This document shows positions 10,489 through 63,990 of a stretch of DNA of 64,000 nt, one piece after another. A program made the translations under genes and the position numbers. Source of the stretch: a virus (lineage: Duplodnaviria > Caudoviricetes); the IMG/VR virus record IMGVR_UViG_2974731583_000001, positions 34,668 to 98,667 of that record; one strand, given 5' to 3'. The notes below the pieces were generated by a model. It was not told the DNA's origin. It did not search any database and worked only from the letters and a program-made list of their open reading frames with translations. Numbering within the stretch: position 1 is the stretch's first letter; the number at the start of each line of letters is the position of its first letter.

Positions 10489-13400
10489 ATCAAATACACA
10501 ATAGATAAATACATTCGCTGGCGGTATGAATACTGACTTGTCAGACATGCTTTTAAAGTCGTCTCAGTATAGATTGGCTAAAAACGTACGTTATGTCACA
10601 AATGACGAGGAGAACGGCGGAGAATTACGAATGGTCGATGGTTGTGTGTTTGGTGGAGATGTATCTGATGGTTTCATTATAGATGATGAATATAAAAACC
10701 GGTTAAAAGTACTTTATACAGGGGCTATTAGAAACTACGCAATAGCTATAGTTAAAATAGAAGTTAATGACGGAGAAAGAATTAATGTTATAGACCCACA
10801 CAACACAAGTAAAGAACTTACAAACTCTCATTGGTGGGTATTGGTTTCAAAAAATCCGTTTGAAAACGTAGACAACGACACCTATATACAAATGGATAAA
10901 TTTAAGGTTGCGTTTGGCCCTTGTGGAGCAACTCTTGGAAATAAATTAAGTGTTGTATGTAGATACGAGAACTATAATAACGTTCACGTTTATATTGCGG
11001 ACGGAATAAATCCAGTACTATCTATAAACATAGGACATGCGTTCGACGATGGATTTGTGCCAAGCAGTGATTATAACGCAATAACATCGAACCCGCAAGT
11101 AACATTTAAACGTATACAATTTGTTGATCTTGTAGACGGTGCTTTACCAGCAGGAATGGTTGAATACAGTTATCAGTACTTTAATAAGTACGGAAACGAA
11201 TCTAAGATTTCAGTACCAACAAAGCTGATACCAATTGTAAAAGGATCTGGTAATTATGCAGAAGGATATAGATCTGGAGAAACATCTAATCGTGGTGTAG
11301 AACTCCGGTTTCCAGGAAAACACGAATCGTTTGATTCTATGCGTATATATCGTATACAGTACATAGAAAACGGGCAAGCTCCTACGGTTGATGTTATATA
11401 CGAATCAAATGTCAACACAACAGATTTCTGGACATATATAGATGGTGGACAACCACCTCTGTATAATGTAACTTTAGAAGAGTATAACGCCAACAGCGGA
11501 ATACACATTATACCAAAAGTAATAGAATCCAAAGAAGATCGCTTATTTGCAGCAAATATTAAGAAAGACTTAAACTCATTCGTTTCTCAAGATATTTTAA
11601 ACTGGGATGCTAGAGCATATAGATTTCCAAAAGACAGTACAACAACCACACTGTATACTTATGGTACAACAAGTAATCCTATTACTGTAGACAACACGTA
11701 TTAGGTGCCAAAGAAACACGACTGTTGGCAATCTACAAACAACATAAATAAAGACCTTACTGAAGACGACCCGCAATATCAATATAACAGTAGTGTTGTT
11801 GGAGGAAGCGGAAAGAATATATCATGGTCTTTTAATGACATTAAAACATCTGCTGACGCAAATATTAGTGATAGTGATTATTATAGTATTCCTGGCACAA
11901 ATGGAAAACCATTATCTTTACAGGATGATAGAAGTTTGTATGTGTTAAATTACACAAAATTTGACGATGGAAATCATCTTATGGGAACTGATATTAAAGC
12001 TTCCTTAGCCAACTCAAAAACATCATACACATATCCATCGTTAAAAGCTGATGAATTATATAGATATGGTATTGTACTTTATGATAAATACGGAAACGCA
12101 AGCCCCGTAAAATGGATTGCCGATATAAGAACTCCAATAGAGTTACCAATATATACGAACGAATTTTCTGATTTAACAACGTCACAGCGTGGATTATTTT
12201 TTGATGTTAATGAACAATCTTTAATAAATGTCGGTGTAACGTCTTACGAGATAGTTAGATGTATAAGATCAGAAAAAGACATAAAGAATTTGTCTATTGG
12301 AGTATTGTCTAGACCAATAAAAAAACTTACTAACAAATATAATTTGCGCAATTCATAGGCAACAGCATCTTATCCATATACACCAAGCGGATGGCTTACT
12401 ACAGCAGATTATTGGGCAGGATCTAATAGACAATTTGACTTTAAAGATTATACTGATGAATATGAAGGGCATTGGTGGGCAGAATCAAACTGTGCAATAC
12501 GTCACGTTGATCATGACGATAATACAACGCATACTACATATAGCGAACCTAACAAATCTATATTTTAGTTTGTATCCCCAGAGGTTTGTTATTCACAAGA
12601 TTCTTTTAAGCAACTTTTACAAGGACAATCTATAAAAATTAAGCCGCTTACATATTTATATGGATATAAGTAGAGAAAAAACGATTAGGATTTTGACCAT
12701 AATTCTTCATTTTTAATATTTTATCCAGCTGAAAACAGTACGTCTAGTGGAGTATTTTTAGACTAGGTGTTATATCCAGGAAACGATTACACCAGAATGT
12801 ACGTAGAAAATACAGCTGTTGTATACAGTGAATTTCCTGGTGAGTATATTGACTTGTCTATAAATTCCGCAGAAAATTTAGATTAGCGAGATATTATAAC
12901 AAATGCATCATCTGTAGCAACGCTGTTTTATTATGGAAATAAGAAATTATCAGACTGTATTACTGGTGAAGGAGATAAAAATTATGTTGTAAACGGAAAA
13001 ACGTATAAAATGTGCTATACTCCGTCTGGATATGAAAACAACGGAGTTGGTTTTAATCAGCTTGATACAGACAAAAGATATTCGTATATAAAGTTATATA
13101 TAGCATCTGACAATATTATTGTTTCTCAATTTACTAAAGGTAATAGAAAAATAATTGAAAATAAATCAGTATCTTCTATAGGTTCTTCTGAAGTTGATGA
13201 TTTTGCGTTTGCAGACACGCTCTAGTGGGATGATTTTGCGGAGATAAAAAAATCCGGAGAAACATATTCTTTAAAATATACAAATACATCTACTGCTATA
13301 GGAAACAATTCGTTTGTAAACTGGGTGTCTAATGGAGCATACAATGTACCAGCTACTGGAGATTGGTCAACGCTTAAACTAGACCAGGCAAATTTACAAG

Positions 13401-48247: not shown

Positions 48248-48265
48248 GGTTTAAAACTCTTTATG

Positions 48266-48401
48266 TGGCTCCGTAGGGAATCGAACCCTACGTGGACTAG
48301 TAACTATGTCATCATAAAACAACTATGAACAAACGAACCTTTCGTTATGATATTAGATATTAAGTTGTCCATGTCTGTGTTTCTCAACACCCTGACGAGC
48401 C
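48266..48401 (-). ncRNA. tRNA/tmRNA-like structured element, 136 nt, non-canonical
   Basis: 5' GGCTC pairs with 3' GAGCC-A. Perfect T-arm GTAGGG-TTCGATT-CCCTAC. GTGTT-GAGA-AACAC hairpin. Long TGGAC/GTCCA-closed stem in place of the anticodon arm. Confidence 0.55.
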
Positions 48402-48464
48402 GTGGGAGGGGCATTTCACCCCTCTAGGTCAATAGAATTGACTGCTCCACCAACCTGCAAGCGA

Positions 48465-49073
48465 TTAAAAAGGTAAATCGTCTGCAGGGTTTTTATTTTC
48501 ACTCACAGTGTCCGGAATAATGCTTGGTGGGAGATTAAGCGGGTCATTTTGTTCTGTATCTGCGGATACAGGACGCTCCATAAGATCCTTTTTAAAGATC
48601 TTTATCTGCGAGTCTGCTATTTCCATTTTCTCAACAAAAATACCGTTCTGACTTACTTGGGTATAACCCTTTTTGTCATAACATACCTTAAGTCGCAATG
48701 GCTTATTGGTACCGATCATTGGGTCAAGAATACCTTTTACCCAATTGATCATGTCTATAAAAGTATTTAGTTCAGCGTCTGGACGCTTATCATAGAAACA
48801 ATCAATGATTTGACAGATGCGTCCAAACTGAACGTTATCGCGTCTCTGTAATTCTTCGTCTGTCTTAATCCATTGATTCTTTTCGTTTTTCCATTCCGTC
48901 ATACTTGCGGTCTGGCCGTCCGAGTTTTCGAAGATAATCTCTAAGAAATCTCGACCGTTTTGGGTTTTGTTTACATTTACCTCTTTAAGGGTTATATTTT
49001 CGTTAATACCTACAGGCATGTAAGAACCTGTGAATTCCTGATTATTTGTTGTTGCTGTTTTTGTACTATACAT
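48465..49073 (-). CDS. Single-stranded DNA-binding protein, 202 aa (start corrected to 49073)
   Basis: C-terminal acidic DDLPF tail. The start at MYSTKTATT avoids overlap with the upstream gene and has an AT-rich leader. Confidence 0.7.
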   Translation of the reverse strand: MYSTKTATTNNQEFTGSYMPVGINENITLKEVNVNKTQNGRDFLEIIFENSDGQTASMTEWKNEKNQWIKTDEELQRRDNVQFGRICQIIDCFYDKRPDAELNTFIDMINWVKGILDPMIGTNKPLRLKVCYDKKGYTQVSQNGIFVEKMEIADSQIKIFKKDLMERPVSADTEQNDPLNLPPSIIPDTVSENKNPADDLPF

Positions 49074-49089
49074 AATTCTTAACTCTGAG

Positions 49090-49842
49090 TTATACTTCTG
49101 GTTTATACACACGATCCCAATACGTAGTAATGGAACCGTCTTCGTTTCCGGTGGCAATAACTATATCCTTTCCTGCAATATGTTTTGCTCTAGCTTGCAT
49201 GATGGTTTCCTCATCACTGTTCTTAAAGCTAATATGGGTTTCGTTACCTTTACGGTACATATAACCCACAGCATCTGCTAGTCCACATATAATTCTACCG
49301 AGTTTTCCGACTAGATCGATTTCTTTTGCGTTTACTTCTTGTCCGTCTTTTTCTGTTATACTATCTTTGACATGTCCAATCAATATAAATTGATCACACA
49401 GCTCTTTAAACATATCGATTACTTTCTTTACAGCATCGCGTAAGTACTTATAACCTGCACCTCGTGGTAGTGTTGTTACATCTGTTCCTTTCCAGTTTTT
49501 ACCCAGTTCGGTAGAACGATATAATGTACAGGCATAAGACATACAAATGTCTTCGAGTCGTGTTGCATTATCGATAGTAATGTGTTTATAGAATTTATGT
49601 CCAACCTCTTCGTTCTTAGCTCGAATGGCTTGAGCAATTTCGCCTAAGTCTGCGATTGTTCTTGCTTGAACAGCAAGAGCATCGATAAACTTAGATCCGC
49701 CTTCTAGGTCTATAATAAGATTGTTCTCTATTTGTGCTACAGCACTAGTTTTACCTGTTTTAGGCAAACCATAGAGAACAAGATATTGTGGATTTGTTGA
49801 AGTTGCTGGAACTTTTTTGGTAGGTAGTACTAATGTGCTCAT
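49090..49842 (-). CDS. Sak4-like / AAA_24 ATPase (recombination-associated)
   Basis: LYGLPKTGKT; IIDLEGG; ITIDNAT; GAGY; ILIGH. Adjacent to SSB. Confidence 0.8.
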   Translation of the reverse strand: MSTLVLPTKKVPATSTNPQYLVLYGLPKTGKTSAVAQIENNLIIDLEGGSKFIDALAVQARTIADLGEIAQAIRAKNEEVGHKFYKHITIDNATRLEDICMSYACTLYRSTELGKNWKGTDVTTLPRGAGYKYLRDAVKKVIDMFKELCDQFILIGHVKDSITEKDGQEVNAKEIDLVGKLGRIICGLADAVGYMYRKGNETHISFKNSDEETIMQARAKHIAGKDIVIATGNEDGSITTYWDRVYKPEV

Positions 49843-49844
49843 TT

Positions 49845-50282
49845 TTATTGAATAACACTAATTTTTAAACCGTTTACGTAAATATCAACAATTGTCTTCT
49901 TTGTCTTCTTAGGAAGAAGATTAAAGAAACTCTTTTTGCTAAAATCGTTATAAAAATACAGATCAAAGCCAATTTGAATAGAGTCCTCAAAGAAGATTAC
50001 AGGAGTATTACCAATGTAATATGTTACACCATATACATAGGGGGTATTATTCTTACCATAGTTGGCAAGAAAATTCTTGGCATCGATAAAAGTAGCTACA
50101 TCGTCAATAGTCGTGGTCTTACTTGTAGTATTGGTGGTGTTCAGGTAATAGTTCTTATCCATTACATCAGCAATAATAAGATCATCGAGCATCTTAGAAT
50201 AATCGGGCTTCTCAGCACGAAAGTTAAAGATTGAATTACTAGTGTTATTACTCTTATCAAAATCAAAAATATAGTTTTTCAT
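49845..50282 (-). CDS. Hypothetical protein, 145 aa
   Basis: Clean ORF abutting the next gene. Confidence 0.65.
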   Translation of the reverse strand: MKNYIFDFDKSNNTSNSIFNFRAEKPDYSKMLDDLIIADVMDKNYYLNTTNTTSKTTTIDDVATFIDAKNFLANYGKNNTPYVYGVTYYIGNTPVIFFEDSIQIGFDLYFYNDFSKKSFFNLLPKKTKKTIVDIYVNGLKISVIQ

Positions 50283-50321
50283 ATGTTCAGCCTTTTTTAA
50301 ATGTGTATACTATATCGTCTA

Positions 50322-51248
50322 TCAGCATTCTATCAGATTGTTGTACATCAGTTCGTTCTCGAATTCGATTATACAAGGTTTTCCCGCATCTCTATTTTTC
50401 AAGATGTGCAAGTACACCTTATTACTTGTCTGCAAATGACTTGGTCCGTATTCTGATATACCAAGGATTTCTGGTCGGTGTAATACTAATACGTAATCAC
50501 TCGCTTGGAATACTGCGTCAGACGACGAAATATCACTACGCATAGGGTAGTGGTTTGATGGATTGTTTATTCTTTCTGAAGATTCTATATTTCTATTCAT
50601 TTGACCAAGCTGTATAACAGAAGTTAGAGGGAGTTTCTTTACTTGGATAAAGACTCTTTCTAACTCACTAATTGTTTCTAATACAGAACCAATCGGTTTT
50701 GTTAATAAAGTATGGTCATATATGATAACAAAGTGTTTATTTGTTCCTTTAACGTGTTCGTTGTAGAAACTCATAATAACTTCATTTACCTGCATGGGAG
50801 TCATCGGATTATCTACAAAGTAGATAGGATACTCCTTTAGCTGATTGGAAACATTTATGACTTTTCTGAATGTATCATCGTCTAGGTCCGTTTCCGAACT
50901 ATACAGGGTGGAAGTTGTTTTTCTAATTTTGTTAGAAATTGTTCTTCCAACTTGCCTAAATCCAACCATTTCTAATGAAAAGGTAAGAATTATAGTTTCT
51001 TCATTAGGATTACAATCTATCAAGTCAGTTTGGATTAAGTTCGCCATTGAACTCTTTCCGCTTCCCGAGATGCCAACTATGGTATAAACGGTATTTGGTT
51101 CAATACCTCCCATACATTGCTTGTTAAACTTTTTCCATCTCGTTTTTAGGGATACTATATTATGTTCTCGTCTTCCTGCCATATAAGCGATAGCTTCTTT
51201 CGTTACTACGCTCATTGGTCTAACGATTTTAGACAAATTCTGTTCCAT
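50322..51248 (-). CDS. dnaB: DnaB-like replicative helicase (C-terminal ATPase domain only); likely start MEQNL at 51248
   Basis: GISGSGKS; FSLEM; IIYDH; LGQMNR; P.RSD..SS....QASDYV; KNRD. Confidence 0.85.
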   Translation of the reverse strand: MEQNLSKIVRPMSVVTKEAIAYMAGRREHNIVSLKTRWKKFNKQCMGGIEPNTVYTIVGISGSGKSSMANLIQTDLIDCNPNEETIILTFSLEMVGFRQVGRTISNKIRKTTSTLYSSETDLDDDTFRKVINVSNQLKEYPIYFVDNPMTPMQVNEVIMSFYNEHVKGTNKHFVIIYDHTLLTKPIGSVLETISELERVFIQVKKLPLTSVIQLGQMNRNIESSERINNPSNHYPMRSDISSSDAVFQASDYVLVLHRPEILGISEYGPSHLQTSNKVYLHILKNRDAGKPCIIEFENELMYNNLIEC

Positions 51249-51789
51249 ACGCTTTTGTAGCTTTTGACTCATCGTTCATTTCATCTTCAATTGCTTCCCA
51301 TTGGTTTCTTGTTAACCAATTCCACATGGTCATCATATACCCACTAGAGCCTTCGCGCGAACGTTTTGCTAGTTCGTATTCTAGACATCTAATTAGGTGT
51401 TCTGCTGTTGCAGGATTATGACCACATTTAGTATTGAACATGTTTCTACACTTATTTACGTTTGCACGCAAATAGCTTTTGGACCCATCTTTTCTAATAA
51501 CATATACAGGGTACATTTCGTAAAACAGATCAAAATAGTTCTTTTTTAGGGTAAGAACTTCGTTAGCTTTCTCTGTTATACTATATGTTACCGTATCACT
51601 ATTCTCTATCATAGTGACATATCCTTTATCAATTAAGTCTGATATTTCAACGTCGTCAATAAGGCTGACTAATTTACGAGCGCTTTGATCTAATTTTTGA
51701 TTCTTACTCAATATCAAACTTAGGAAGATTAACTGATTGTTATTTATATCTCCTAGGTTTAGGAGATCAGTGTTTACTTCTAAAATCAT
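51229..51789 (-). CDS. Putative replication initiator / helicase loader (wHTH plus FYEMYP...WL....WE)
   Basis: F..FY..YP and WL.+..WE motifs typical of phage replication-organiser C-domains. Overlaps the helicase start. Confidence 0.55.
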   Translation of the reverse strand: MILEVNTDLLNLGDINNNQLIFLSLILSKNQKLDQSARKLVSLIDDVEISDLIDKGYVTMIENSDTVTYSITEKANEVLTLKKNYFDLFYEMYPVYVIRKDGSKSYLRANVNKCRNMFNTKCGHNPATAEHLIRCLEYELAKRSREGSSGYMMTMWNWLTRNQWEAIEDEMNDESKATKAYGTEFV

Positions 51790-51816
51790 ACTATTGACTC
51801 GTCGGTTCTAAGTTGG

Positions 51817-53706
51817 TTAAAAAAGTTCTAATTGTTGTTCAGTAAAGTCAGAAATTATCTTTTTGGCTTCGCTGATATAGTAACGGTAATTTACCTTTCG
51901 GTCTACCATTAAGCGATCATCGAGTTTATTTAAAACAGTTACTCCAGATTTCGTTAACATGTTGTTATATTGTAGTTCTCCATCTGGATTTTGTTTAACT
52001 TTATATAGGTATGCACCATTTGTTGATGCATAAAACCTATTTATTCGTTGAATTGGTTTATCTCCATGTTCAACTTTAAACTTTCTATCGACAGCTTGTG
52101 TCATTAGAAAATCATATATATCGTTATCGTTTTTAATAAACTCGTCAACGGATTGTCCGGTTAAGAAATAATTTATAACAGCTTTTGGTATTACAACCGG
52201 TGCTAAGCCTTTACCAAGTTTTGTTTCTGTTATAAACATACCTTTCTTTTCTATCAATTTTGGATTATGAGATTTTGACCATCCTTTAATGACACCAAAG
52301 TAGTCATTTATAGCGTATTGATAAAACGCTTCGTACTCATCTATTTCAAAACTAAGTTGGGTTATAGATTCTACTTCTGCTATAGCTTCCTGAATTCTAT
52401 TTGCAGAAGTCTTTTTTGATCTATAAACTACACCATCTGTATTGCATTGGATAATCTCACAGCCCAATGACAATAAGCGATCCACAACCATCAATAAAAT
52501 CAACTGACCGTTAATTCTAATTTTGAATACGTTAAATGGATCATATAACCAACTTACCTCCTGTTGCATCTTGCCTGTAGGAGAATTAAGCACAATTTTT
52601 AGGAACTTGTTCTTAAGGTCTTGACCAGTACGTTTTGCTTCTATTCTCTCTTTATACAAATTTGAGAATATATCGCAAAATAATTTTCCTAAGTGGCGAG
52701 GTCCCCATTGATATTTAATCAATAGAGACGGATACATTGATGTTACATCAGCGTGTCCAATAAACTCGTCATCTTTAGGGAGGAATATTTTAGGAGTATG
52801 TATAGTATGTATACCACCAACTCCTATAGAATACACCACATTCGAGAGAACAAACTTCTTCTCGTAGCCTTTTCGCTCTTTAGAGTAAACTACCTGTTCC
52901 TTCATTTCCTCTAAAATGCTCTGTAACTTTGGGTTTTTGTATTTTATAAATGGCAGAATGACATCTTTCAATGGAATATAGTCCATTGGAGATCTCATTT
53001 CCTTTATAACATTTTTCGGAATACCTGATTTATTAGAATATTCTTCTAACAAAAAGGTTTCTGCCATTTTCACAGAATCCATCGATAAACAATCAATTCC
53101 GTGTTCGTGTTCAATAAATAATCGCAATTCGACATCACCCTTCAGTTTGTTTAATAACTCTTCTGTTGAGTTAACGTCGTTTATATTGTAGGATATCATA
53201 TTGTCTATTTCACATGCAGGAAGATTGTTTTCAAAATCTCCTTCATACTCATATACGTTTTTATAACGCATTGTTATCTGCATTGTTTTCAGTCCTACAC
53301 GCAATTTTCTACTAAACAACATTGTTAATAAGTCCATAGAATAGAAGTAATTTGCATACCTCCATCTTTTGACTTTATCTCTTGTTTCATCCTCGTCTTT
53401 TACCAATGTTTGTGAAAGATTGAACAGAGAGCCACATATTTTCCAATACGGTAAGAATTGCATCTTGTTGTAATAGTCTATAATATAGTTTATAATAACA
53501 TCATCGTAGTGTTTGTTATTATACCCGCAGAACATTTTGTCAGTACCAGATACGAAAAAACCAACTAGTTTATCCAGCTGGTTCTTTCTTTCTGATATTT
53601 CAAATTTGTATAGTTCTCCGGTCTCTGTGTCCTTTGCACAACAATGGAATACGTTAGGAAATATTTCTATGTCGTAGACATATACTTTTTTGTTTCGTAT
53701 CCACAT
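51817..53706 (-). CDS. polB: DNA polymerase family B with 3'-5' exonuclease, 629 aa
   Basis: ExoI YDIE, ExoII GYNNKHYD, ExoIII YNINDV. Region II DVTSMYPS, region III K..LNS.TGK, region I NTDG. Confidence 0.9.
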   Translation of the reverse strand: MWIRNKKVYVYDIEIFPNVFHCCAKDTETGELYKFEISERKNQLDKLVGFFVSGTDKMFCGYNNKHYDDVIINYIIDYYNKMQFLPYWKICGSLFNLSQTLVKDEDETRDKVKRWRYANYFYSMDLLTMLFSRKLRVGLKTMQITMRYKNVYEYEGDFENNLPACEIDNMISYNINDVNSTEELLNKLKGDVELRLFIEHEHGIDCLSMDSVKMAETFLLEEYSNKSGIPKNVIKEMRSPMDYIPLKDVILPFIKYKNPKLQSILEEMKEQVVYSKERKGYEKKFVLSNVVYSIGVGGIHTIHTPKIFLPKDDEFIGHADVTSMYPSLLIKYQWGPRHLGKLFCDIFSNLYKERIEAKRTGQDLKNKFLKIVLNSPTGKMQQEVSWLYDPFNVFKIRINGQLILLMVVDRLLSLGCEIIQCNTDGVVYRSKKTSANRIQEAIAEVESITQLSFEIDEYEAFYQYAINDYFGVIKGWSKSHNPKLIEKKGMFITETKLGKGLAPVVIPKAVINYFLTGQSVDEFIKNDNDIYDFLMTQAVDRKFKVEHGDKPIQRINRFYASTNGAYLYKVKQNPDGELQYNNMLTKSGVTVLNKLDDRLMVDRKVNYRYYISEAKKIISDFTEQQLELF

Positions 53707-53790
53707 GACTCTCAGGTTCTTAGTTATACTTAGTGCGTGTGGGGGTTATAATCCCCCTACAGCTATATTATGCTGTACACGCTTCACATG

Positions 53791-54495
53791 TTATGCCACT
53801 TTCTTTTTTATTGGCACTAATACCCCTCCGGTTTTTCCTCCGTGAGATTTTAATACCGCACATGTCATGTTTTTATGGTCTTTCCATGTGGCAGTGGTAA
53901 TTGCCTGTGCTTTTAATATCAACTTAGACTTTTTTGAGTCTAATATGTTGACATTATGGCCTTCGTTATGAGCATCTTTTATTTTTGCAATAAGATGATC
54001 TTCATATACGTGAGGTTTTACCTCGAATCGGCCTATTAGTGGTAGCTTATTAAACATAGTCGTAACCAAACGTTCTATGTTACCAATCGCTGCTTTTTTC
54101 TTTTCTTCCCATTCAGGTAGGAATTGAGATTCAAACAGGTCTTTTTGTGAATCATCTGTTTTTACTGGACATGGATTTCGTTTAATCCACTTTTCTAGCT
54201 TATAATTCACAAAGGCTTTCATTTTTTCATCTTTTGATAGATTCTTAAACAAAGTCTTTTCTATAAGAGAATAGTCTCTGTACTCTTTTTTACCTAAGTT
54301 CTTTGGTTGTGGATATGACATCTTCTTCCAAGAATCATCATATACATACTCTCCAGCATCGTTTTTAACTATTTTACGATGCTTGTTCTCGAACTGGGGT
54401 ATTGTATTGTTATTAACCGTATATTTACGAGAATTGGTTGCAAGGTGCGCTACTTTTCTTCTACGAACCTTAATACGAATGCTGCTATGTCCCAT
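53791..54495 (-). CDS. Hypothetical basic protein, 234 aa
   Basis: Clean ORF, Lys-rich. Confidence 0.7.
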   Translation of the reverse strand: MGHSSIRIKVRRRKVAHLATNSRKYTVNNNTIPQFENKHRKIVKNDAGEYVYDDSWKKMSYPQPKNLGKKEYRDYSLIEKTLFKNLSKDEKMKAFVNYKLEKWIKRNPCPVKTDDSQKDLFESQFLPEWEEKKKAAIGNIERLVTTMFNKLPLIGRFEVKPHVYEDHLIAKIKDAHNEGHNVNILDSKKSKLILKAQAITTATWKDHKNMTCAVLKSHGGKTGGVLVPIKKKVA

Positions 54496-54518
54496 ATTAA
54501 TTTCTCTATGTAATGCAT

Positions 54519-55160
54519 TTATGCTGCTTTCTTTTTAAGTTGTTTGCCGCTATTTTTATTCTTTCGGATAGGCACAATAGTAGCCTTTTTTGCCTTTCTA
54601 GAGGCTCTGACATCAGCTAAGTTCTTCTTTTTCTTAGCTTCTGCTCGCTTTTCTATTTTGCTTTTCCGCTTTGCGACTTTCTTTTTCGGCACCTTTTTGT
54701 TTTGTACGACGTTATCTCCATCGTCAAAATCAATTCGTTTCTTGCGTACTAGCGGTTGTATCTTTGCGCTGTCTGGTAGAACTTCTCGTAATTTATTGAG
54801 CAATTCGTTATCTCCTACGAACTTCATCCAGTATTCCATGATAATATTATCGTTGGCTTTTGTATCTATGTGCTTGTTTACTATAGACGATATAATCTTG
54901 TAATCCTTTTGAGGAAAGAACACATATATGTCATATGTGTTAGGAGATGCCAGGAGCTCTTTCAGTTTTTCTACGTATGCATTAGTCTTTTCTTCAGACA
55001 ATCCATATCTCTTGCATCTTCTTTTCAATGCGTTGACACGGAATGCAACATAATTTTGTTCACGACGCTCTGCTTTTGTGAGCTTACTTGTGTTATCTAC
55101 TGTATTCTCGGTTGTAGTCTGACCATTATTGGCAGTGTCTACTATGGTATTTTTCTTCAT
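54519..55160 (-). CDS. Hypothetical protein with very basic (histone-like) C-terminal tail, 213 aa
   Basis: KKVPKKKVAKRKSK...KQLKKKAA tail. Confidence 0.7.
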   Translation of the reverse strand: MKKNTIVDTANNGQTTTENTVDNTSKLTKAERREQNYVAFRVNALKRRCKRYGLSEEKTNAYVEKLKELLASPNTYDIYVFFPQKDYKIISSIVNKHIDTKANDNIIMEYWMKFVGDNELLNKLREVLPDSAKIQPLVRKKRIDFDDGDNVVQNKKVPKKKVAKRKSKIEKRAEAKKKKNLADVRASRKAKKATIVPIRKNKNSGKQLKKKAA

Positions 55161-55279
55161 AATTTGATATTATTAAATTAAACATGTGTCGTTATTACGA
55201 CTTAGTGACTAGGTGGGAGCATCGAATCCCTCTGATATAATATCAGCTGTCCACATACAAATCTAGTCTATCGATAACT

Positions 55280-55825
55280 TTATACTGTTATGTCATCGAT
55301 AAAATTATTTGAACAATTAGCAAGGTCAATCGTTGTGTTCTTATTGAACTTATCCAATGCTGCATCGTGCTTATTTGCCTCCATCTGATGTTTGTTTATC
55401 AGGGATGCAATCTTCGCAGATGTAAATGTTTCTATCTTGCTAAGCTTGTCCAAGCCCTTCTCTGCTTTAAGAGCTGGGTTTATAGTTTTAATCATCTTCA
55501 ACTGGGCAATTGCCTCTTTAGCCTCACCAGCAGCGAAGATTGAGTAATTGTTCGTCTTTTTAAATGCCTCTATGTCAAACATAGTGATACCCATATTGAG
55601 GTATTGTAGCATTCCTTTAATCATGATTCGTTTGTTAGCCATTTGAGTAATCTCATTATAGAGAGCTTTAAGGTCATAGTTAGAACCTAAACCTGCTTTC
55701 TTGGCTTTCTTACTCATTACGTTTTCACTTCGAATAATTCGCCAATAATCGTTAATTTTACGATCGAGGTTCTTACGAATGATGATTATACTACCTGAAT
55801 TCAACTTGATTGTCTTATTTTCCAT
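55280..55825 (-). CDS. Hypothetical helical protein, 181 aa
   Basis: Clean ORF with AT-rich leader. Confidence 0.7.
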   Translation of the reverse strand: MENKTIKLNSGSIIIIRKNLDRKINDYWRIIRSENVMSKKAKKAGLGSNYDLKALYNEITQMANKRIMIKGMLQYLNMGITMFDIEAFKKTNNYSIFAAGEAKEAIAQLKMIKTINPALKAEKGLDKLSKIETFTSAKIASLINKHQMEANKHDAALDKFNKNTTIDLANCSNNFIDDITV

Positions 55826-55891
55826 ATTATATTGATTAAATTAAACATTAGTTGAATTCGAGAAGTCATTTGCGTGATTTAAATTGGTTAC

Positions 55892-55949
55892 GAGCCAAGA
55901 TAAATCAAAGAATGTTTAAAGAACCGAGATAAACCAAAGAATGTCTAAA
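55892..55949. repeat. Imperfect 29-nt tandem repeat, 2 copies
   Basis: gagccaagataaatcaaagaatgtttaaa / gaaccgagataaaccaaagaatgtctaaa. Confidence 0.8.
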
Positions 55950-56143
55950 TAGGGATTAGAGTAAGTCTCCCGCAGAAGTATACTCAATGCCCCGCAGAGC
56001 ATGTTCCCTATTTTAGACATATGGTTTTGGAATATTCTAATATAAAATGTTAGATAAATTGATTTGTATATAATAGCACGTACATGTGTTGATCTCCCGA
56101 AGAAGTCTTCACAGCCCCCGCAGAGGCTTTTAGCGTACCCGCA

Positions 56144-56737
56144 TTATTTTCCACCAATCCATCGAGCATTCAATATTTCGAATACATTTCCAACGCAATC
56201 GACAACCTTAAATGTAACTGGTGTTACAGGTTGAGGTGTGTCTTTTACGTGTATCACAACTTTGTTATTACTGTCAGATGGTGACTCTTTTTGGGTGTGT
56301 GAATTAAGCCCACTAGTTTTCCAATATCCATCTGATGTTAAATGGCGTACAATGTCGAAGAATCGATCTACAAGCCAGTCCCAATTCTTTTCACGAATAC
56401 CTCGCATAAGAGTTTCGTGACCCAGTCCTTCTAAGACTGGTGTTGCAGCCTTGGTTCCAGCTGTCATATCGACTAATGCATCCCATACACGAAGAGCGAA
56501 CTCTTCAAATGAGATGTCTTTCTTACATTTGATAAGGTTATTCCAGAAGTTACCTAACGGAGAGTTCCAACTGTATTTACCCAACTGAATCAATCCGTTT
56601 TCACGGACGATTTTGACCGAAGTGTAACGCTCACTATGTTTGATAGGAGCAGTTACTCGGTCATAAATCTTTGGTTCCTTAAGGAGAGCCTGTATCAAAT
56701 CACAGCTTTTGGCTGTAAGAGAACCACAACTCTCCAT
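56144..56737 (-). CDS. Hypothetical protein, 197 aa
   Basis: Clean ORF 5 nt from the upstream stop. Confidence 0.7.
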   Translation of the reverse strand: MESCGSLTAKSCDLIQALLKEPKIYDRVTAPIKHSERYTSVKIVRENGLIQLGKYSWNSPLGNFWNNLIKCKKDISFEEFALRVWDALVDMTAGTKAATPVLEGLGHETLMRGIREKNWDWLVDRFFDIVRHLTSDGYWKTSGLNSHTQKESPSDSNNKVVIHVKDTPQPVTPVTFKVVDCVGNVFEILNARWIGGK

Positions 56738-56742
56738 ATTGT

Positions 56743-57366
56743 TTACTCTTCGTGATTAGCAGGAGAGATCACAATGGTAGGAGAACCAGGAGCACCTACT
56801 GCCTGTTTAGGAGTAGAGCTAAGAATCTGCTGGGTGTACTCGTTGGCACGATCTGAATTGTTCTTAATAGTAGAAATGAGACCGTCACGCATCTTTGTCA
56901 GTTGAGCAATAAATGCGTTGATACGAGCAACTTCAATCTGGTTCAACTCGTTTGCCTTCTTGGCAAGAGCCTCGCCATCTGCATAGATGGTATTAGAACC
57001 AGGGTTGGTGAGAGACTCCTTCATAGCCTCCTCAATCGGACGATTGAATGGATTGCTACCAGCGATGATAGCGGCACTTGCCTCAGATTTCTCTCCAGGA
57101 TTGAAGATCACAACGGTAGAACCATCTACGTTGGTCTTAATCTGCTGAGATACTACGTCATAACCGCGTACGACGTAGCGGACAGGAGTGCGGTTTGGCA
57201 TAAAATCTTTAGAACCGCTGTTGCTGTTCTCGAGCTTTACGCGGTCGAAGTCGGGGTACGACTCTACTGCACCGAGGGTGAAATACTTTCCGCCAAGGAG
57301 GCCTCCAATAATGTTAAGTTGCTTGCGGTTCTTTTCTACTACCGCCATGTTTACGTTTGTTTCCAT
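56743..57366 (-). CDS. Hypothetical protein, 207 aa, codon bias suggests high expression
   Basis: Clean ORF rich in AAG/GAG/AAC codons like MCP. Confidence 0.75.
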   Translation of the reverse strand: METNVNMAVVEKNRKQLNIIGGLLGGKYFTLGAVESYPDFDRVKLENSNSGSKDFMPNRTPVRYVVRGYDVVSQQIKTNVDGSTVVIFNPGEKSEASAAIIAGSNPFNRPIEEAMKESLTNPGSNTIYADGEALAKKANELNQIEVARINAFIAQLTKMRDGLISTIKNNSDRANEYTQQILSSTPKQAVGAPGSPTIVISPANHEE

Positions 57367-57384
57367 ATGTCTTATCCTTTTTGA

Positions 57385-59585
57385 TATCGTTATTGATTAA
57401 CTAACGATAAGATTAATAATATGCTACTTCAAAAGGTGTAGCGTTACCTTTGAGATATGATAGTTTAACATCTTGGCTCAAAGGCTCTCGGATGTCTTTT
57501 CAATTTTTATATACATCTTTACCCGTGCTTATGAGAGGGATGTTTTTGGTAAATCCATACAGGTTGTTTCCTAGCTAGATAGACTTACACAACTCGAAGT
57601 TGGTTCTTTCTATCGGGGATCAAACGGTATGATCAGCTATGCCCGTCATTAGGAAATTCTTCTGTCTGCGATAAAACTGCAAACATTGATGTTGTACAAT
57701 CAAGTACAAAATTTACTAAGATCATTTTGTTTATTTTTTGTAAAACAATAATAGACAATTTAATGCCTACTTCTTAAATGAACCAACTAGTGCTAAGCTT
57801 TCGCATCCTAAACGGCAAAATTTTGGTTCTTCCCACGAAAGTTAGTGATATCTTTAGCGTATTTTCCAAGTATGCTTAGATTCACCACGATTGTTATTTA
57901 ACCACAGATTTTCTCTAATGTTGTCAACATTTTCACACATCCAGATTATCAGGAATGTGATTAGGCTGTCGCTAATTTACCTTTTCCTACTTAACGTGAG
58001 GAGTACGTTTCTTTATCGAACAGTCTCACCTTCAGGGGGGTCAACGACTCTACGGCTTGATTTTTTATCTTGGCAAGTGCTTGCCTCTTTGTTTATAGTG
58101 CACGAATACTGGAGGAATTCCACCTCATACCTTATCATGCTTGTCACCCACTTATCTTCTTTGCACATACCTCGAGACAGGAGGTAGTGGTTCCTGCATA
58201 CGATTATATCACTGCGTCTAATCAGTTGATAAGCTGCCCATCACATTTTTGGTATACGACTTTATACTTTCCACCCACATAGATTTGCGGTCTATGCTTC
58301 GCTTCGTTTCGTATTCTGTCAATTATTTCTCAGTCACGGTTGGCACTTGACACCGACTCAATCAAAAAATGGCTAATTTACTATCCATACAACGGTAGTT
58401 AACGGCTTATTATTCCGCTTATAATTAACGTAATTTGTCTATCGGGGGACATGTCGTTAATAATGTTATTTATAATTATTCGCGTTGACTTATTTTCATA
58501 GAAACCATCTTAGCTTAAAGTTATTATTCATATTTAGTATATAACACAAGGTCACGTGTGTTCAGGGACTAAGTAGTATAGCAATAACAGTAGCGATTTC
58601 TATTATTATCCGTCTAAGCATGTATCTGGATCTCTTTCAATACTGGAGTGTACTGTGTCGAATCGAAATACATAAATGATATTGGTTTGGTTGGTTAATT
58701 GTCAGGTAATTATCCTTATTGCTTACCACAGCTTTTTGGTTCTGTGGGGCATTTTTAAAATAGACAACATTGTTCGCTTACCAACAACATTGAATTCACG
58801 TCAGCCTTTGAACGCGGGCTCTTCGTCGCGTAATCACTATTGATTTCAGGTCTGCATTACCTGCTGGTCATTCCACTTTTTTATCCCGCATGAACGAACA
58901 AGGCCTGGCGGTCACACTTCATCGTAATTCAGCCGTTTTACCAACTATATCCCCTGCGCGTGTTAACCAGAGGCACCAGATTTGCACTGGACTGGACTTA
59001 CATAGGCGACGTAGTTACGGTACATCCTGTAAGTATTATCCTTACAGTATTGTTTACTCTGTGTATTTTTTCGGACCTTTATATTGGCGTTGGAGACCAA
59101 AAACACTATCCTACAGCTTTTATTGGTTGATACATCATATAAGGGTGGGATGCCTACTTACTCTAGTCATACGTCGATATCATTGCAGACAATGCCATAC
59201 CATGTACATTCTCTCCCACAACGTAGGTTTTCAGTATTTTCTTATATGTTTCAGCTCGTGTACGTAATTCTAAGGATGTATCAGTCACTTAGATTTATCG
59301 ATACGGTTCATTTTTGCTCTTCTTGAGACTTACGGGTCTTTTGTTATTATTCCATCACCAGACGGTTCTCATGGTAACAAGGAGGTTGATACATACCCTT
59401 ACTCCTCTTACTGTTTGCTTTTCAACTGTACAACAAAAACAGAACAAACAGCATTTCATCCTACCTTTTGGGTTTCTCACCCTTTGAGAGGGCTAACATA
59501 TTCTCAGATCAAGTATTGTTGTATACGATGGTCCTGGGCTAATGAGACCCACTATTTTTAGCGTTCCACACGCCCGACCAAAGGA
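57385..59585 (+). ncRNA. Candidate very large structured non-coding RNA (~2.2 kb)
   Basis: No credible ORF in a genome that is otherwise packed. More than 25 hairpins, many with G-U pairs that form only on the + strand. Confidence 0.5.
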
Positions 59586-59589
59586 AGAA

Positions 59590-60042
59590 TCAGTGTGGAA
59601 TACTATCCAGTTTGGTAACTGTATAATACTCCACAGACGTGTCGTCTTCACAACACGTCATTTTTGCCAGATAATACACTGGGCGATCAACATATATTGT
59701 ATCACCCCGTGTTCGATTTACTCTTGTGCGTTTTTTAGTCGCGGTGAGTTTAGTTCTCGTTGCCTTAACTTTCTTCTCCAGCTCTGTTATACGAGACTGC
59801 AGAGAATCGGTGTTTATTTTAGGAGTGTTTACCACTTCCTGTGCACCTTGTTTTTTCGCTTGGTCTAACAAAAGATCCAAGGGCATTGACATTTTTGAAT
59901 CAGTTGACATATTCATTGCCATAGTTGGCAATGTTGCCGCAAAGGCACCATTCTGATTGTCGTTTGTTGTTTCATGTAGTGCAAGTCCTATTCCAAAGAT
60001 TGCAAACATCATGGAACACAAAATAGATGTAAATTTTCTCAT
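59590..60042 (-). CDS. Membrane-anchored/secreted protein with coiled coil, 150 aa
   Basis: N-terminal hydrophobic segment (MRKFTSILCSMMFAIFGIGLAL) and TDSLQSRITELEKKV coiled coil. Confidence 0.7.
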   Translation of the reverse strand: MRKFTSILCSMMFAIFGIGLALHETTNDNQNGAFAATLPTMAMNMSTDSKMSMPLDLLLDQAKKQGAQEVVNTPKINTDSLQSRITELEKKVKATRTKLTATKKRTRVNRTRGDTIYVDRPVYYLAKMTCCEDDTSVEYYTVTKLDSIPH

Positions 60043-60140
60043 AACTTTGATAGTTTTTGATTACTCGCCCCAGAAGAATTTGTCGATTCTGTTCTTAACG
60101 GCCGTCATAAAGTCGCGAGACTTTTTCTTAATGACGGCAA

Positions 60141-61553
60141 TTATTTTTTTGAACCTTCCTCTTTTGCAGGCTCTTCAACCTTCTCTTCTGTAGACTCGTT
60201 GGTTACAATCAGTTCTGTGATATTGCTTTCTTTGTAAGCAATGTTCTGCTGCAAAGGATCACGGAACATGTTGATGATTACACCAGCATACTGTTGCATG
60301 TTGTGGATAAGAGAATCATGTTCAACCTGCTTAGGTGTGATTCCACGATAGTAGGTCTTCATGATTTCAGAAGCAGTTCGGTGAGCGGTTTTGTATTCTT
60401 CGTGCTCACGATTGTCGTATGCTTCTGGCAGAATGTCAGCAATTGCGGTAGAAGGATCTGTTACAAATGAAGAAACTTCCTTGTAACTTTCGATGCAAGA
60501 CTTATATGTCTTGATCTTTTCATTCTCCTTTTCGATTGCTTTGGCGTTCTGCTTCTTGTTCTTGCTCAAAGCCTTGATGTTAGCCTCGCATGTAGCGATT
60601 GACTCTTCATCAGCTGTGATCTTGGAATCTGCATTCCAAGTTACAAGAATCTTAACCATAGATGCTACTGCCGAATCATCGATAGTAGGATGGCCGGTGG
60701 TTTTGTCAAGCGTATTGTTGCGGAACATGCAGAAAGCCGCCACAGGGCTCTTAGTAGTTGCCGTCGCCGTATACAGAAGGTTTGAAATTCCGTGCATGGA
60801 GAATGGACAGGGGCCAATAATCTTAACCACGTCTCGAAAGAGTTCCTCATTAGAGGCATCCGATACCTTTTTCTTGGCGGCCTCATCGTCGCCTGCACGA
60901 AAGTACAAATAGTCACGATAGAACTTAATCAGGGAAAGAATTCTCGCATACGGACGCGCATCTTCCTTGGTAGAGGCAAGAATATATATTCCACCTTTAC
61001 GCACTCCCTCTTCAGTAGTTACCTTTGAACCATCTGTCTCAGGAATTTCTTCTGCAATGGCGTTCTCCTTTTCAATAGACGCCTTGGTTTCCTTAGATAC
61101 AGTTATTGCTGTACTAGGAAGTTCGATGTTTCCATTTACATCTGGTGCTGGAAGCGCCTTAGTATCCAAATGGATACCAACTTCTCCGCTAAGTGCTACA
61201 ATATTATCTACTGTGCTCTTAGGAAGCAGCATTGTAAATGGATTCTTTGCAAGAGTAATCTCGCATGCGAGAGCTGCTACTTGCATCACAGCATTAATCT
61301 TATTAATACTGTTTACTGTTTCTTGTGGCATACCTGTGTGGTTGGCTGCCATAGGATCTTTACGGAATGTCTCGTGCATTACGGTAATAAGATCCATACG
61401 ATGGTTAGGATCCAGACCTGCAACATGTACTGCCATTTGCTCTGGAGACATGTTTGTCAGATTTTCCATCTGCTCAGAGGTTACTTTACTGTTGTCAACC
61501 TTCTGCTCTACTTTAGGAGCCTGTGCTCCCATTTTTCCTGTTTTCTTACTCAT
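60141..61553 (-). CDS. Hypothetical protein, 470 aa (497 aa, ending at 60061, if -1 frameshifted)
   Basis: Long clean ORF ending on A-AAA-AAA-TAA followed by a hairpin. Confidence 0.8.
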   Translation of the reverse strand: MSKKTGKMGAQAPKVEQKVDNSKVTSEQMENLTNMSPEQMAVHVAGLDPNHRMDLITVMHETFRKDPMAANHTGMPQETVNSINKINAVMQVAALACEITLAKNPFTMLLPKSTVDNIVALSGEVGIHLDTKALPAPDVNGNIELPSTAITVSKETKASIEKENAIAEEIPETDGSKVTTEEGVRKGGIYILASTKEDARPYARILSLIKFYRDYLYFRAGDDEAAKKKVSDASNEELFRDVVKIIGPCPFSMHGISNLLYTATATTKSPVAAFCMFRNNTLDKTTGHPTIDDSAVASMVKILVTWNADSKITADEESIATCEANIKALSKNKKQNAKAIEKENEKIKTYKSCIESYKEVSSFVTDPSTAIADILPEAYDNREHEEYKTAHRTASEIMKTYYRGITPKQVEHDSLIHNMQQYAGVIINMFRDPLQQNIAYKESNITELIVTNESTEEKVEEPAKEEGSKK

Positions 61554-61620
61554 TTTGATAATGGTTTTAAGAGTTAAATAATGTTATTGACTATAATGAA
61601 CCTTTGCCGGAAAGTAACTT

Positions 61621-62049
61621 TCATGAAGTATCAAACATGATATTCTTTATTATGTTACTCCGTGGCATATGTTCATTATATACCCTCATTGGTTGATCTC
61701 GCTCTTTTGAGCGGATCTTAAACAAAGTATTATATCCTTCTACCACATCAAGTGTGTAATCCTTACTTGCAGGGACAGCATCTGTCACATGCATATTGGC
61801 GATCATGATCAAATCGTTTGTAGTAGGTTCTAATGAACTTAACGACTGATCTGATACCTGCATGGGGCACACTTGAGTAATAGAAGAATTAGTACTTTGT
61901 TTGTCGTCCTGGATGTTACGTACAATCGTTGCTATTGCAAAAGCGGTACACAACGAAATAAGCAACTGCCAGAACAGGCGATCGTCTTCGTTATATCGTG
62001 CGATAAGAACGATAACAATCACTGCTAGAACGAACAAACTTAAGATCAT
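61621..62049 (-). CDS. Two-TM membrane protein, 142 aa (possible anti-sigma partner)
   Basis: Two N-terminal hydrophobic helices. ATGA overlap with the ECF sigma stop. Confidence 0.65.
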   Translation of the reverse strand: MILSLFVLAVIVIVLIARYNEDDRLFWQLLISLCTAFAIATIVRNIQDDKQSTNSSITQVCPMQVSDQSLSSLEPTTNDLIMIANMHVTDAVPASKDYTLDVVEGYNTLFKIRSKERDQPMRVYNEHMPRSNIIKNIMFDTS

Positions 62050-62609
62050 AATTCTTGTTTAAATTGTTTTTGGATTTTTTTGCGAGTCCTAAACAACAAT
62101 GACTTAATAGTTCCAGTTGGGATATTTAAGGCCTCTTTAATTTGAGATACTGTTAAATTATCTATGTAAAATAATTCACATACTTGTTTTGTCTGTTCCG
62201 GCAATTTTTCAAACTCTTCAAGTATGTTTTTGTAAGTTAGACGATTTACCATTTCGTCTTCACTTCCAACAACAGCATTACAACTGAATCCTTTATTTTT
62301 AAAGTTTTCAATCATTCTACTATTGCTTTTTACTTCACGTAAATAATCTATAGCAACTCTGTTAGATAAAACTCTTAACCATCCACCAAACGATTCATAT
62401 TCGGTGAATGTCGAGAGCTTTTTGTAAACCTTTAGAAATACAACGTTGGTGATATCATCAGCTTCGTCTGGATCCTTTATATAACTAAATAGAATTTTAG
62501 ATACAAAAGATCTATATTTCTGAAAGATTTGAGAGAACGCAGATTCATCACCTGCTTGGGCTCTTTTGATTATCCCAATCTCCTCTGGGGTAATACGTGG
62601 GGTTTTCAT
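62046..62609 (-). CDS. ECF-type (sigma-70 group 4) RNA polymerase sigma factor
   Basis: GDESAF..IF.KY; A.DI...VFLKV; F.GWL.....VAIDYLR; LP.....V..L......T..QI...L.IP.GTIKS.LFR.RK. Confidence 0.9.
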   Translation of the reverse strand: MKTPRITPEEIGIIKRAQAGDESAFSQIFQKYRSFVSKILFSYIKDPDEADDITNVVFLKVYKKLSTFTEYESFGGWLRVLSNRVAIDYLREVKSNSRMIENFKNKGFSCNAVVGSEDEMVNRLTYKNILEEFEKLPEQTKQVCELFYIDNLTVSQIKEALNIPTGTIKSLLFRTRKKIQKQFKQEL

Positions 62610-62745
62610 AATCAAACAAACAATATGCTAGATAAACTAGGGTGGTTATTAACCGTACGTAACGATGTTCAGACACCAGCTGTTTTAGTGGGGATATTAG
62701 GTTTCGCTCCTGTGACAACATAAATTGTCTATATCCCCAATATTG

Positions 62746-63192
62746 CTAAAATGGTAACATATCGTCCAATAACGAATTTCTCAAATCAGCAATATTTGCA
62801 ACAAGTATTTCATGGAACCATAATGCATGACGCTTGCTAACAAAATTCGCCTCTTCAAGTTTATTCAACATGCATGTCGCTATTCGCAATCTTACATTAG
62901 TTGAATAAACCGATTCTGAGCATCTTAACACGATGTTTTTGTTTATCCATCGTATTAAAAGCATCAGGTGATGATTTGTTAAACATTCGTATATATAATC
63001 ACAGTCTGTGAAATACTCGTCTTTAGTTAGAGGACTTATACATACAACATGATGATCCGACAATACGGGATCATACTCGAATTTACTTTTTGCTGTTGTT
63101 AGTTCTCTCATGTGATCTAGAGCACTTTCTATAGTACTCTCATTTCGCCGAGAATATCTCGATACTAGATAATTGGAAAATACACCGTACAT
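62746..63192 (-). CDS. Hypothetical protein, 148 aa, ends DDMLPF-TAG
   Basis: Own ATG with A at -3. Acidic-aromatic C-terminal tip followed by TAG. Confidence 0.6.
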   Translation of the reverse strand: MYGVFSNYLVSRYSRRNESTIESALDHMRELTTAKSKFEYDPVLSDHHVVCISPLTKDEYFTDCDYIYECLTNHHLMLLIRWINKNIVLRCSESVYSTNVRLRIATCMLNKLEEANFVSKRHALWFHEILVANIADLRNSLLDDMLPF

Positions 63193-63195
63193 AAT

Positions 63196-63696
63196 CTACT
63201 TAGTGTTGCCTTCGATGCAAGAAATTAAGAATTTTGCTAATCTTTTTCCTTCATCGTCGGAATAATCTGGGAAATACTTAGTTGACATTTCTTTTATGAA
63301 AGAATCTTCTTCATACTTTCCAGTCTTACGAGAGATGCTATACATATTTTCTATGTAAGCATAATTTACTGAGAACCAATCCACCCAGTTGTCGACCCAA
63401 TTCCAATAGAATTGTTCTTCATCTGTTAGGTTCTCCCAATCAATTGTTTTGTGAAAATCAAAAAATCGGGGTTTTCCTTTTTTAAGACCTAATAAGGCAC
63501 GAGTCACTTGCTTCTTGTTGTCCTTTTTTGTAGATTTGATAGTACCATTTTCTAGTACTTCATCACCTACTATACTTACAAAACAATCATACACGTGGTT
63601 AATCCATCGTTCTTTTGCTTTACACCATTTTAGTGCAAAGTTTACTACTTCAGGACATCTATCTCGAAGCATTTCTTTGTATCCTTGTTTCTTCAT
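63196..63696 (-). CDS. Hypothetical protein, 166 aa, ends in TAG
   Basis: Starts 4 nt after the tRNA-Leu 3' end. Confidence 0.65.
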   Translation of the reverse strand: MKKQGYKEMLRDRCPEVVNFALKWCKAKERWINHVYDCFVSIVGDEVLENGTIKSTKKDNKKQVTRALLGLKKGKPRFFDFHKTIDWENLTDEEQFYWNWVDNWVDWFSVNYAYIENMYSISRKTGKYEEDSFIKEMSTKYFPDYSDDEGKRLAKFLISCIEGNTK

Positions 63697-63700
63697 ATTG

Positions 63701-63786
63701 TGCTCTAAGCGGGATTCGAACCCGCACGACCATTACTGGTCAAGGGATTTTAAGTCCCTCACGTCTACCACTTCCATCATTAGAGC
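63701..63786 (-). tRNA. trnL: tRNA-Leu(TAA)
   Basis: GCTCTAA/TTAGAGC-A acceptor, AGGGA-CT-TAA-AA-TCCCT anticodon arm, long variable arm, GCGGG-TTCGAAT-CCCGC T-arm. No encoded CCA. Confidence 0.95.
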
Positions 63787-63787
63787 T

Positions 63788-63990
63788 ATTAAAAATGTTG
63801 ACCGCATTTCACAACGAAGCCAACACAAAAGTATTATGCCTAATAAGAATATTTATATCGTGGACCAGCTAGGGCTTGAACCTAGGACCTCCAGATTATG
63901 AGTCTGTTGCTCTAACCAACTGAGCTACAAGTCCTTATTAGATGATTGCCACATTAAAAACACTAACCGCGTTTCACAACGAAGTTAGTG
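63788..63990 (-). repeat. Two copies of a conserved hairpin upstream of each tRNA (63796-63825 and 63961-63990)
   Basis: Shared core TTCGTTGTGAAAYGCG closed by different but pairing 7-bp stems, each followed by TTTTTAAT. Confidence 0.75.
63861..63934 (-). tRNA. tRNA with CAT anticodon, most like Ile2 (lysidine-modified); Met not excluded
   Basis: GGACTTG...TAGCTCAGTTGGTTAGAGC...CAGA-CT-CAT-AA-TCTG...CTAGG-TTCAAGC-CCTAG-CTGGTCC-A. Confidence 0.9.

Follow-up and report, generated by a model that had tools for sequence, protein, structure and literature searches.

The replication operon of a crAss-like phage was found to be interspersed with short intergenic elements whose tRNA-derived identity is well supported by sequence comparison with related phages. 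At a probability that we put at about 55%, these elements are tRNA top halves that act as processing signals, cut by RNase P and RNase Z in the manner of the t-elements of plant mitochondria. The DNA analysed (hereafter, the window) is a 64,000-nt stretch of IMG/VR record IMGVR_UViG_2974731583_000001 and shares 99.3% identity with the crAss-like phage cr273_1 (Crassvirales, Suoliviridae, Oafivirinae, Buhlduvirus; pig faeces). Its replication operon occupies the minus strand from ca. 64000 down to 44600 and comprises, in this order, tRNA-Met, tRNA-Leu, two small open reading frames (ORFs), an ECF-type sigma factor, several unknown ORFs, PolB, a helicase, a RecA-like ATPase (RefSeq ‘RecA protein’), SSB and primase. 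A first-pass annotation had described four intergenic three-way junctions in this operon as tRNA-like punctuation marks. All four sequences were located on the minus strand, and their intergenic placement was confirmed; a long element and a minihelix had been missed. The six elements are as follows.

48402–48450, minus strand: element 1, two adjacent hairpins directly 5′ of the long tRNA-like element.
48266–48401, minus strand: long tRNA-like element of 136 nt before primase, identified by a strict T-arm scan, its sequence and its fold.
53734–53782, minus strand: element 2, before PolB; the junction is the minimum free energy (MFE) fold, with z = −4.0 against dinucleotide shuffles.
55206–55268, minus strand: element 3, before a 213-aa gene (54519–55160); the junction is the MFE fold.
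55875–55906, minus strand: minihelix, before the gene at 55280–55825; a 12-position hairpin with a 7-nt loop, followed by A55875 and C.
62689–62738, minus strand: element 4, before the sigma gene; the junction is the MFE fold, with z = −4.1 against dinucleotide shuffles.

The relatives compared were 80 IMG/VR contigs retrieved with PolB (58%–82% protein identity) together with the phage itself; flanks of 10 kb were taken around PolB where the contig was long enough, giving a total of 953 kb. A strict T-arm motif, defined as a 5-bp stem with G-TTCRANN-C (canonical GGTTCGAnTCC), occurred at 157 sites on the operon sense strand versus 15 on the antisense strand. The sense-strand sites were strongly biased towards intergenic positions (141 of 157 versus 23.5% expected, p ~8e-70), and tRNAs predicted by ARAGORN held only 20 of them, leaving 137 outside any such tRNA. 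The description of the four window elements as unrelated in sequence but alike in layout was found to hold for the whole group, as the T-arm elements of the relatives, spanning 41–224 nt, fell into 89 sequence clusters. This clustering gave no clear sign of movement between slots.

The elements also resembled real tRNAs beyond the closing stem, where both carried the tail N73-C74-(A/U)-A with an A-rich first base. C was the second base after the stem in 80 of 123 mini elements (65%) and in all 17 real tRNAs of the relatives, compared with a background of 17%. Within the window, A and then C followed all six tRNA-like elements and both tRNAs, none of which encodes CCA. This common 3′ tail suggests a single signal, recognised on real tRNAs as well as on mimics. 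It also confirms the remark of the first-pass annotation that the ACTAA endings echo the ends of the real tRNAs. The heptamers CACTAAG and CACTAAA as such were not enriched within the window.

The same intergenic slots were occupied in the relatives, in some cases by real tRNAs. In most relatives, the PolB slot contained a hairpin with a canonical T-arm, a strand that pairs with sequence further upstream to close a stem, a single unpaired base and then a conserved leader. In several, ARAGORN predicted a tRNA at this position (Leu, Met, His, or one with an 8-nt anticodon loop). Element 2 aligned in register with both the canonical T-arm elements and the ARAGORN tRNAs and was followed by the same leader:

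53707–53733, minus strand: conserved leader of 27 nt between element 2 and the PolB ATG.

This leader was nearly invariant across relatives whose PolB proteins were only ca. 75% identical. In contigs L016 and L018, the PolB slot was the end of an extra ORF, possibly an inserted mobile gene, and both the tRNA-like element and the conserved leader were absent. The primase slot held a canonical T-arm element or a tRNA in 29 of 38 relatives, the tRNA being tRNA-Leu, Trp or Glu in some. The distance from the element end to the ATG was 15–27 nt for primase and mostly 17–28 nt for PolB. A conserved 8–10-nt palindrome lay 10–20 nt ahead of the primase ATG in relatives such as L012 and L029, and the window has a related near-palindrome (~48250–48260); the palindrome may be an operator or a small hairpin.

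In the slot before the 213-aa gene, the relatives had T-arm loops of TTCGAAT, TTCGATG or ATCGTTC, or a tRNA-Gln. In the sigma slot, an acceptor-like stem with a T-arm-like hairpin stood immediately after the stop codon in 20 of the 26 contigs listed (22 relatives with an identifiable slot), and only a few relatives had a canonical T-arm or tRNA there. Aberrant tRNAs of 67–73 nt, one with an 8-nt anticodon loop, were also found in these slots. The pattern extended to a second subfamily: cr114_1 (Uncouvirinae, PolB 48% identical) had T-arm elements before PolB and primase, and its sigma slot contained a minihelix followed by ACTAAAA. In the one genome of Intestiviridae inspected, cr3_1, the only T-arms in 42 kb were those of three annotated tRNAs.

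The expectation that the structures would covary across related genomes was borne out in the sigma and minihelix slots. In the former (nine sequences), 97% of cells were paired and 5 of 11 pairs showed compensatory changes, compared with at most 53.5% pairing in slid controls. The minihelix slot (25 sequences, including window positions 55875–55906) had 94% of cells paired and compensatory changes in 10 of 11 pairs, with slid controls at or below 46%. It contained 32 G-U cells, which fit a fold of the sense strand because G-U would be mismatches on the other strand. In the slot of element 3, three of four T-stem pairs were compensatory, and six different closing stems were all complementary. 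The sequences of the relatives thus show a sense-strand RNA structure under selection. A covariance model of the minihelix class matched only its own site in the window; because it finds no other slot, the element classes share structure rather than sequence. An acceptor-like stem stacked on a T-arm-like hairpin, ca. 12 positions in all, is kept by selection, and the elements are intercistronic, lie on the strand that is transcribed and use slots open to real tRNAs too. Taken together, the slots, the strand and intergenic bias, the covarying stems and the 3′ tail in the relatives strongly support both the tRNA-derived nature and the punctuating placement that the first-pass annotation had proposed.

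The folds of the individual window elements were consistent with this architecture in most cases. The three-way junction was the MFE fold of elements 2, 3 and 4. In element 2, a 6-bp closing stem (53777–53782 with 53735–53740) enclosed a hairpin (53759–53776) and a T-arm-like hairpin (53741–53757; 5 bp, 7-nt loop) stacked directly on the 3′ closing strand, followed by A53734 and C. Element 3 had a 6-bp closing stem (55263–55268 with 55207–55212), a hairpin at 55232–55246 and a T-arm-like hairpin at 55215–55230 whose loop opens with TTCGA, with A55206 and C thereafter. The closing stem of element 4 was 8 bp long (62731–62738 with 62690–62697) and enclosed a hairpin at 62714–62729, a T-arm-like hairpin of 3 bp with a 7-nt loop (62699–62711) and one bulged A; A62689 and C followed. 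The long element comprised a 5-bp acceptor (48397–48401 with 48267–48271), a canonical T-arm (48274–48290, loop TTCGATT) and an insert of ca. 100 nt; A48266 and C followed, and the primase ATG was 18 nt further on. The minihelix gave z = −2.4. The 3′ side measured 12 positions, as in the 7 + 5 top half of a tRNA, in elements 2–4, the minihelix and the long element. The elements started 7–15 nt past the upstream stop codon and ended ca. 18–70 nt ahead of the next start codon.

None of the tools for known RNA classes named these elements. ARAGORN and cmscan (E ≤ 1) recovered only tRNA-Met and tRNA-Leu in the window, and the elements did not form a full cloverleaf. Rfam gave no family match to the elements; in the window, it returned only the real tRNAs and, below threshold, an antisense match over tRNA-Met, and on 66 kb of the relatives two weak hits. 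Pfam and PHROGs searches of the neighbouring genes named only the sigma factor, and no RNA-processing enzyme was recognisable among them. The literature searched held no account of elements of this kind in phages, whether crAss-like or not.

The layout itself is not distinctive. A loose layout descriptor had 704 matches in the window, and layout-only descriptors were rejected as evidence since chance matches were too common. Similarly, acceptor pairing of at least 6/7 around T-arms is expected by chance; perfect pairing (7/7) was modestly enriched (43 versus 2–22 at shifted offsets), and the helix length peaked at 7–8 in 58% of the elements versus 35% of the controls. The shared layout alone is therefore weak evidence, and the support comes from the relatives.

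Several observations weigh against the interpretation of the elements as tRNA-derived processing signals. A stricter layout descriptor was matched at 31% of random coding positions, versus 70% of PolB and 58% of primase slots. The claimed junction of element 1 did not hold: two plain hairpins were preferred, and the junction lay 5 kcal/mol above the MFE with an ensemble probability of ~1e-4. Element 1 also had no clear positional homologue among the relatives; the junction reading of it is not supported, and the true tRNA-like element before primase is the neighbouring 48266–48401. Element 3 was no more stable than its dinucleotide shuffles (z = −0.8). The T-loop departed from the canonical form in all window elements but one, and tRNA enzymes may recognise such loops less well; among the six, the only canonical 5-bp/7-nt TTCRANN T-arm closed by G-C was that at 48274–48290, element 3 had TTCGA in an 8-nt loop, and elements 1, 2 and 4 and the minihelix had other loops. 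The fixed spacing could instead reflect a role of the conserved leaders in their own right, for instance as operator or promoter. In addition, IMG/VR and a metagenome scan yielded no relative between 82% and 99% PolB identity, and the covariation therefore comes from relatives at ~80% PolB identity or below.

The part of a tRNA to which RNase P and RNase Z respond is its acceptor/T-arm half. Because the elements keep the recognised half, occupy slots in common with processed tRNAs and have the same 3′ context, cis-acting cut signals would be the most economical explanation. In this reading, each element keeps an acceptor-like stem stacked on a T-arm-like hairpin, together ca. 12 positions; where a tRNA has its D and anticodon arms, there is a single hairpin, a long insert or no sequence at all. 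The mechanism would be the same as in the maturation of the phage's own CCA-less tRNAs. Host RNase P would cut at the 5′ end of the acceptor stem, and RNase Z, or an equivalent 3′ tRNA-processing activity, would cut past the unpaired base following the stem. The polycistronic transcript would thereby be split into separate messages opening with short conserved leaders, and a mini-RNA of 45–145 nt would be released. We infer the cleavage, the enzymes involved and any effect on expression.

The closest analogues are the t-elements of plant mitochondria, which are demonstrated or suggested to direct the RNase P and RNase Z cuts that generate 5′ and 3′ ends of mRNAs (Forner et al. 2007, PMC1920247). 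Like the phage elements, they are non-canonical tRNA-like folds with a GGTTCRANYCC T-arm that lie beside protein genes, and their role is interchangeable with that of real tRNAs (PMC1920247). Unlike them, the phage elements belong to an operon, are present in many more copies per operon across the group and stand at a fixed short distance from the next start codon; some are bare 12-position hairpins. In animal mitochondrial transcripts, tRNAs or tRNA-like folds between cistrons are cut sites for tRNA-processing enzymes, whereas the majority of the elements in the phage are not functional tRNAs, and an element is found in only some of the spacers. Co-transcripts of tRNAs and mRNAs also occur in Escherichia coli, in which RNase P cleaves intercistronic regions. 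The bacterial RNase P of the phage host would likewise act on tRNA-containing polycistronic RNAs; however, the E. coli sites are real tRNAs or weak structural mimics and do not form a conserved anticodon-less family. Polycistronic tRNA transcripts are treated in PMC2190699.

Among the alternatives, a structured RNA that stabilises the flanking messages or binds a protein, as a translational operator or an end-protecting fold, without involvement of tRNA enzymes, is considered unlikely. Covariation shows only that a fold is selected, the T-loops of the window are mostly non-canonical, and the highly conserved leaders after the elements, including the palindromes before primase, would suit such a role. 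However, it leaves unexplained the exact tRNA T-loop in the relatives, the real tRNAs in the slots and the tRNA-matching tail.

Another alternative, which we regard as improbable, is that the elements are processed out as small tRNA-like RNAs acting in trans; they might, for instance, be decoys that engage host enzymes or defences directed at the acceptor/T-arm half. The retained half is the part recognised by RNase P, RNase Z, the CCA-adding enzyme and EF-Tu. Moreover, contig L051, which comes from IMG/VR 3300042986, ends at the discriminator of the primase-slot element followed by CC, whereas the near-identical L052 has CA at that place. If the sample is RNA, this may mark the end of a CCA-tailed transcript, but as a single case it could be chance. 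CCA addition there would also point towards the processing model. The 89 unrelated sequence clusters reveal no conserved trans-acting segment, and the ‘decoy RNA’ suggested in the first-pass annotation found no specific support, although a trans-acting product would be compatible with, and not exclusive of, the processing model.

Decay of phage tRNA genes into remnants without present function could account for the real and aberrant tRNAs in the same slots of the relatives and for the degenerate T-loops of the window, but appears still less probable, given that compensatory changes preserve the acceptor and T stems even as the middle disappears, that the spacing to the ATG is fixed and that two subfamilies have these slots occupied. 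Transcription terminators or attenuators, or DNA-level hairpins in replication, are very improbable despite the G+C-rich hairpins in intergenic spacers of the replication module, as no T-run followed any element (A, C and A-rich sequence stood there instead), no terminator-like site was called on the sense strand at any of them, and the G-U pairs and one-strand T-loop motif fit a sense-strand fold, RNA rather than DNA being indicated by the tRNA likeness and the real tRNAs in the slots.

If tRNA-derived processing signals are indeed present, crAss-like phages would borrow host tRNA-maturation enzymes to cut and tune their messages, an organelle-style tRNA punctuation in a bacterial virus. In the mammalian gut, these phages rank with the most abundant viruses. 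The elements would constitute a conserved, unannotated class of tRNA-mimic RNA with a constant spacing upstream of the PolB, primase and sigma genes, and odd ‘pseudo-tRNA’ calls in such genomes would be explained. Precise predictions follow, namely mini-RNAs with a CCA tail and cuts at specified bases.

At least one read-through gene model would also be corrected. Element 4 lies inside the RefSeq coding sequence KNV62_gp58 (62548–63696, minus strand), which merges three ORFs via TAG codons at 63196 and 62746 and requires read-through of both. The middle ORF ends in Leu-Pro-Phe-stop, which is conserved in the relatives, with TAA as the stop codon in three; for this reason, element 4, which starts 7 nt past this stop, is regarded as intergenic, and the part of gp58 annotated beyond 62746 is probably artefactual. 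The sigma-slot element of many relatives begins with the G of the upstream TAG stop. A broader and rather improbable scenario would join these features: tRNA genes of Suoliviridae may have been repeatedly reduced to anticodon-less top halves that became obligatory operon punctuation, and the excised CCA-tailed mimics might accumulate with a function of their own, such as titrating host factors or defences with an affinity for the acceptor/T-arm half. RNase P cleavage at the G of TAG would then remove the stop codon, linking processing to TAG recoding and the phage tmRNA.

In-frame TAG codons were abundant in the plus-strand late genes. Outside the window, a tRNA with a CUA anticodon (G000, 12606–12679) is a suppressor for these TAG-recoded genes, and a phage tmRNA was located at G000 193–562. 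The leader of the sigma gene (62616–62688, minus strand) looks like a small conserved pseudoknot in which the loop of a short hairpin pairs with sequence 3′ of a second hairpin; by eye, both pairings are preserved in three or four sequence variants, and RNAalifold recovered the inner hairpin only. The real tRNAs of the window stand at the head of the operon:

63700–63934, minus strand: tRNA-Met and tRNA-Leu, identified by ARAGORN and Rfam, with no encoded CCA and with A and then C after each.

The tRNA-Leu ends 3 nt upstream of the ATG at 63696 that opens the first ORF of the operon (the RefSeq gene start is 63672), and its processing would leave an almost leaderless message for this ORF. Because tRNA-Met is duplicated at both ends of the assembly, terminal redundancy is suggested. 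Finally, positions 57385–59585 (minus strand) form a 2.2-kb gap of higher GC content in the otherwise packed operon, with no ORF even when TAG is read as Gln and no Rfam match, and cr114_1 has an unannotated gap of 1.85 kb at a similar point of its operon, downstream of the sigma gene.

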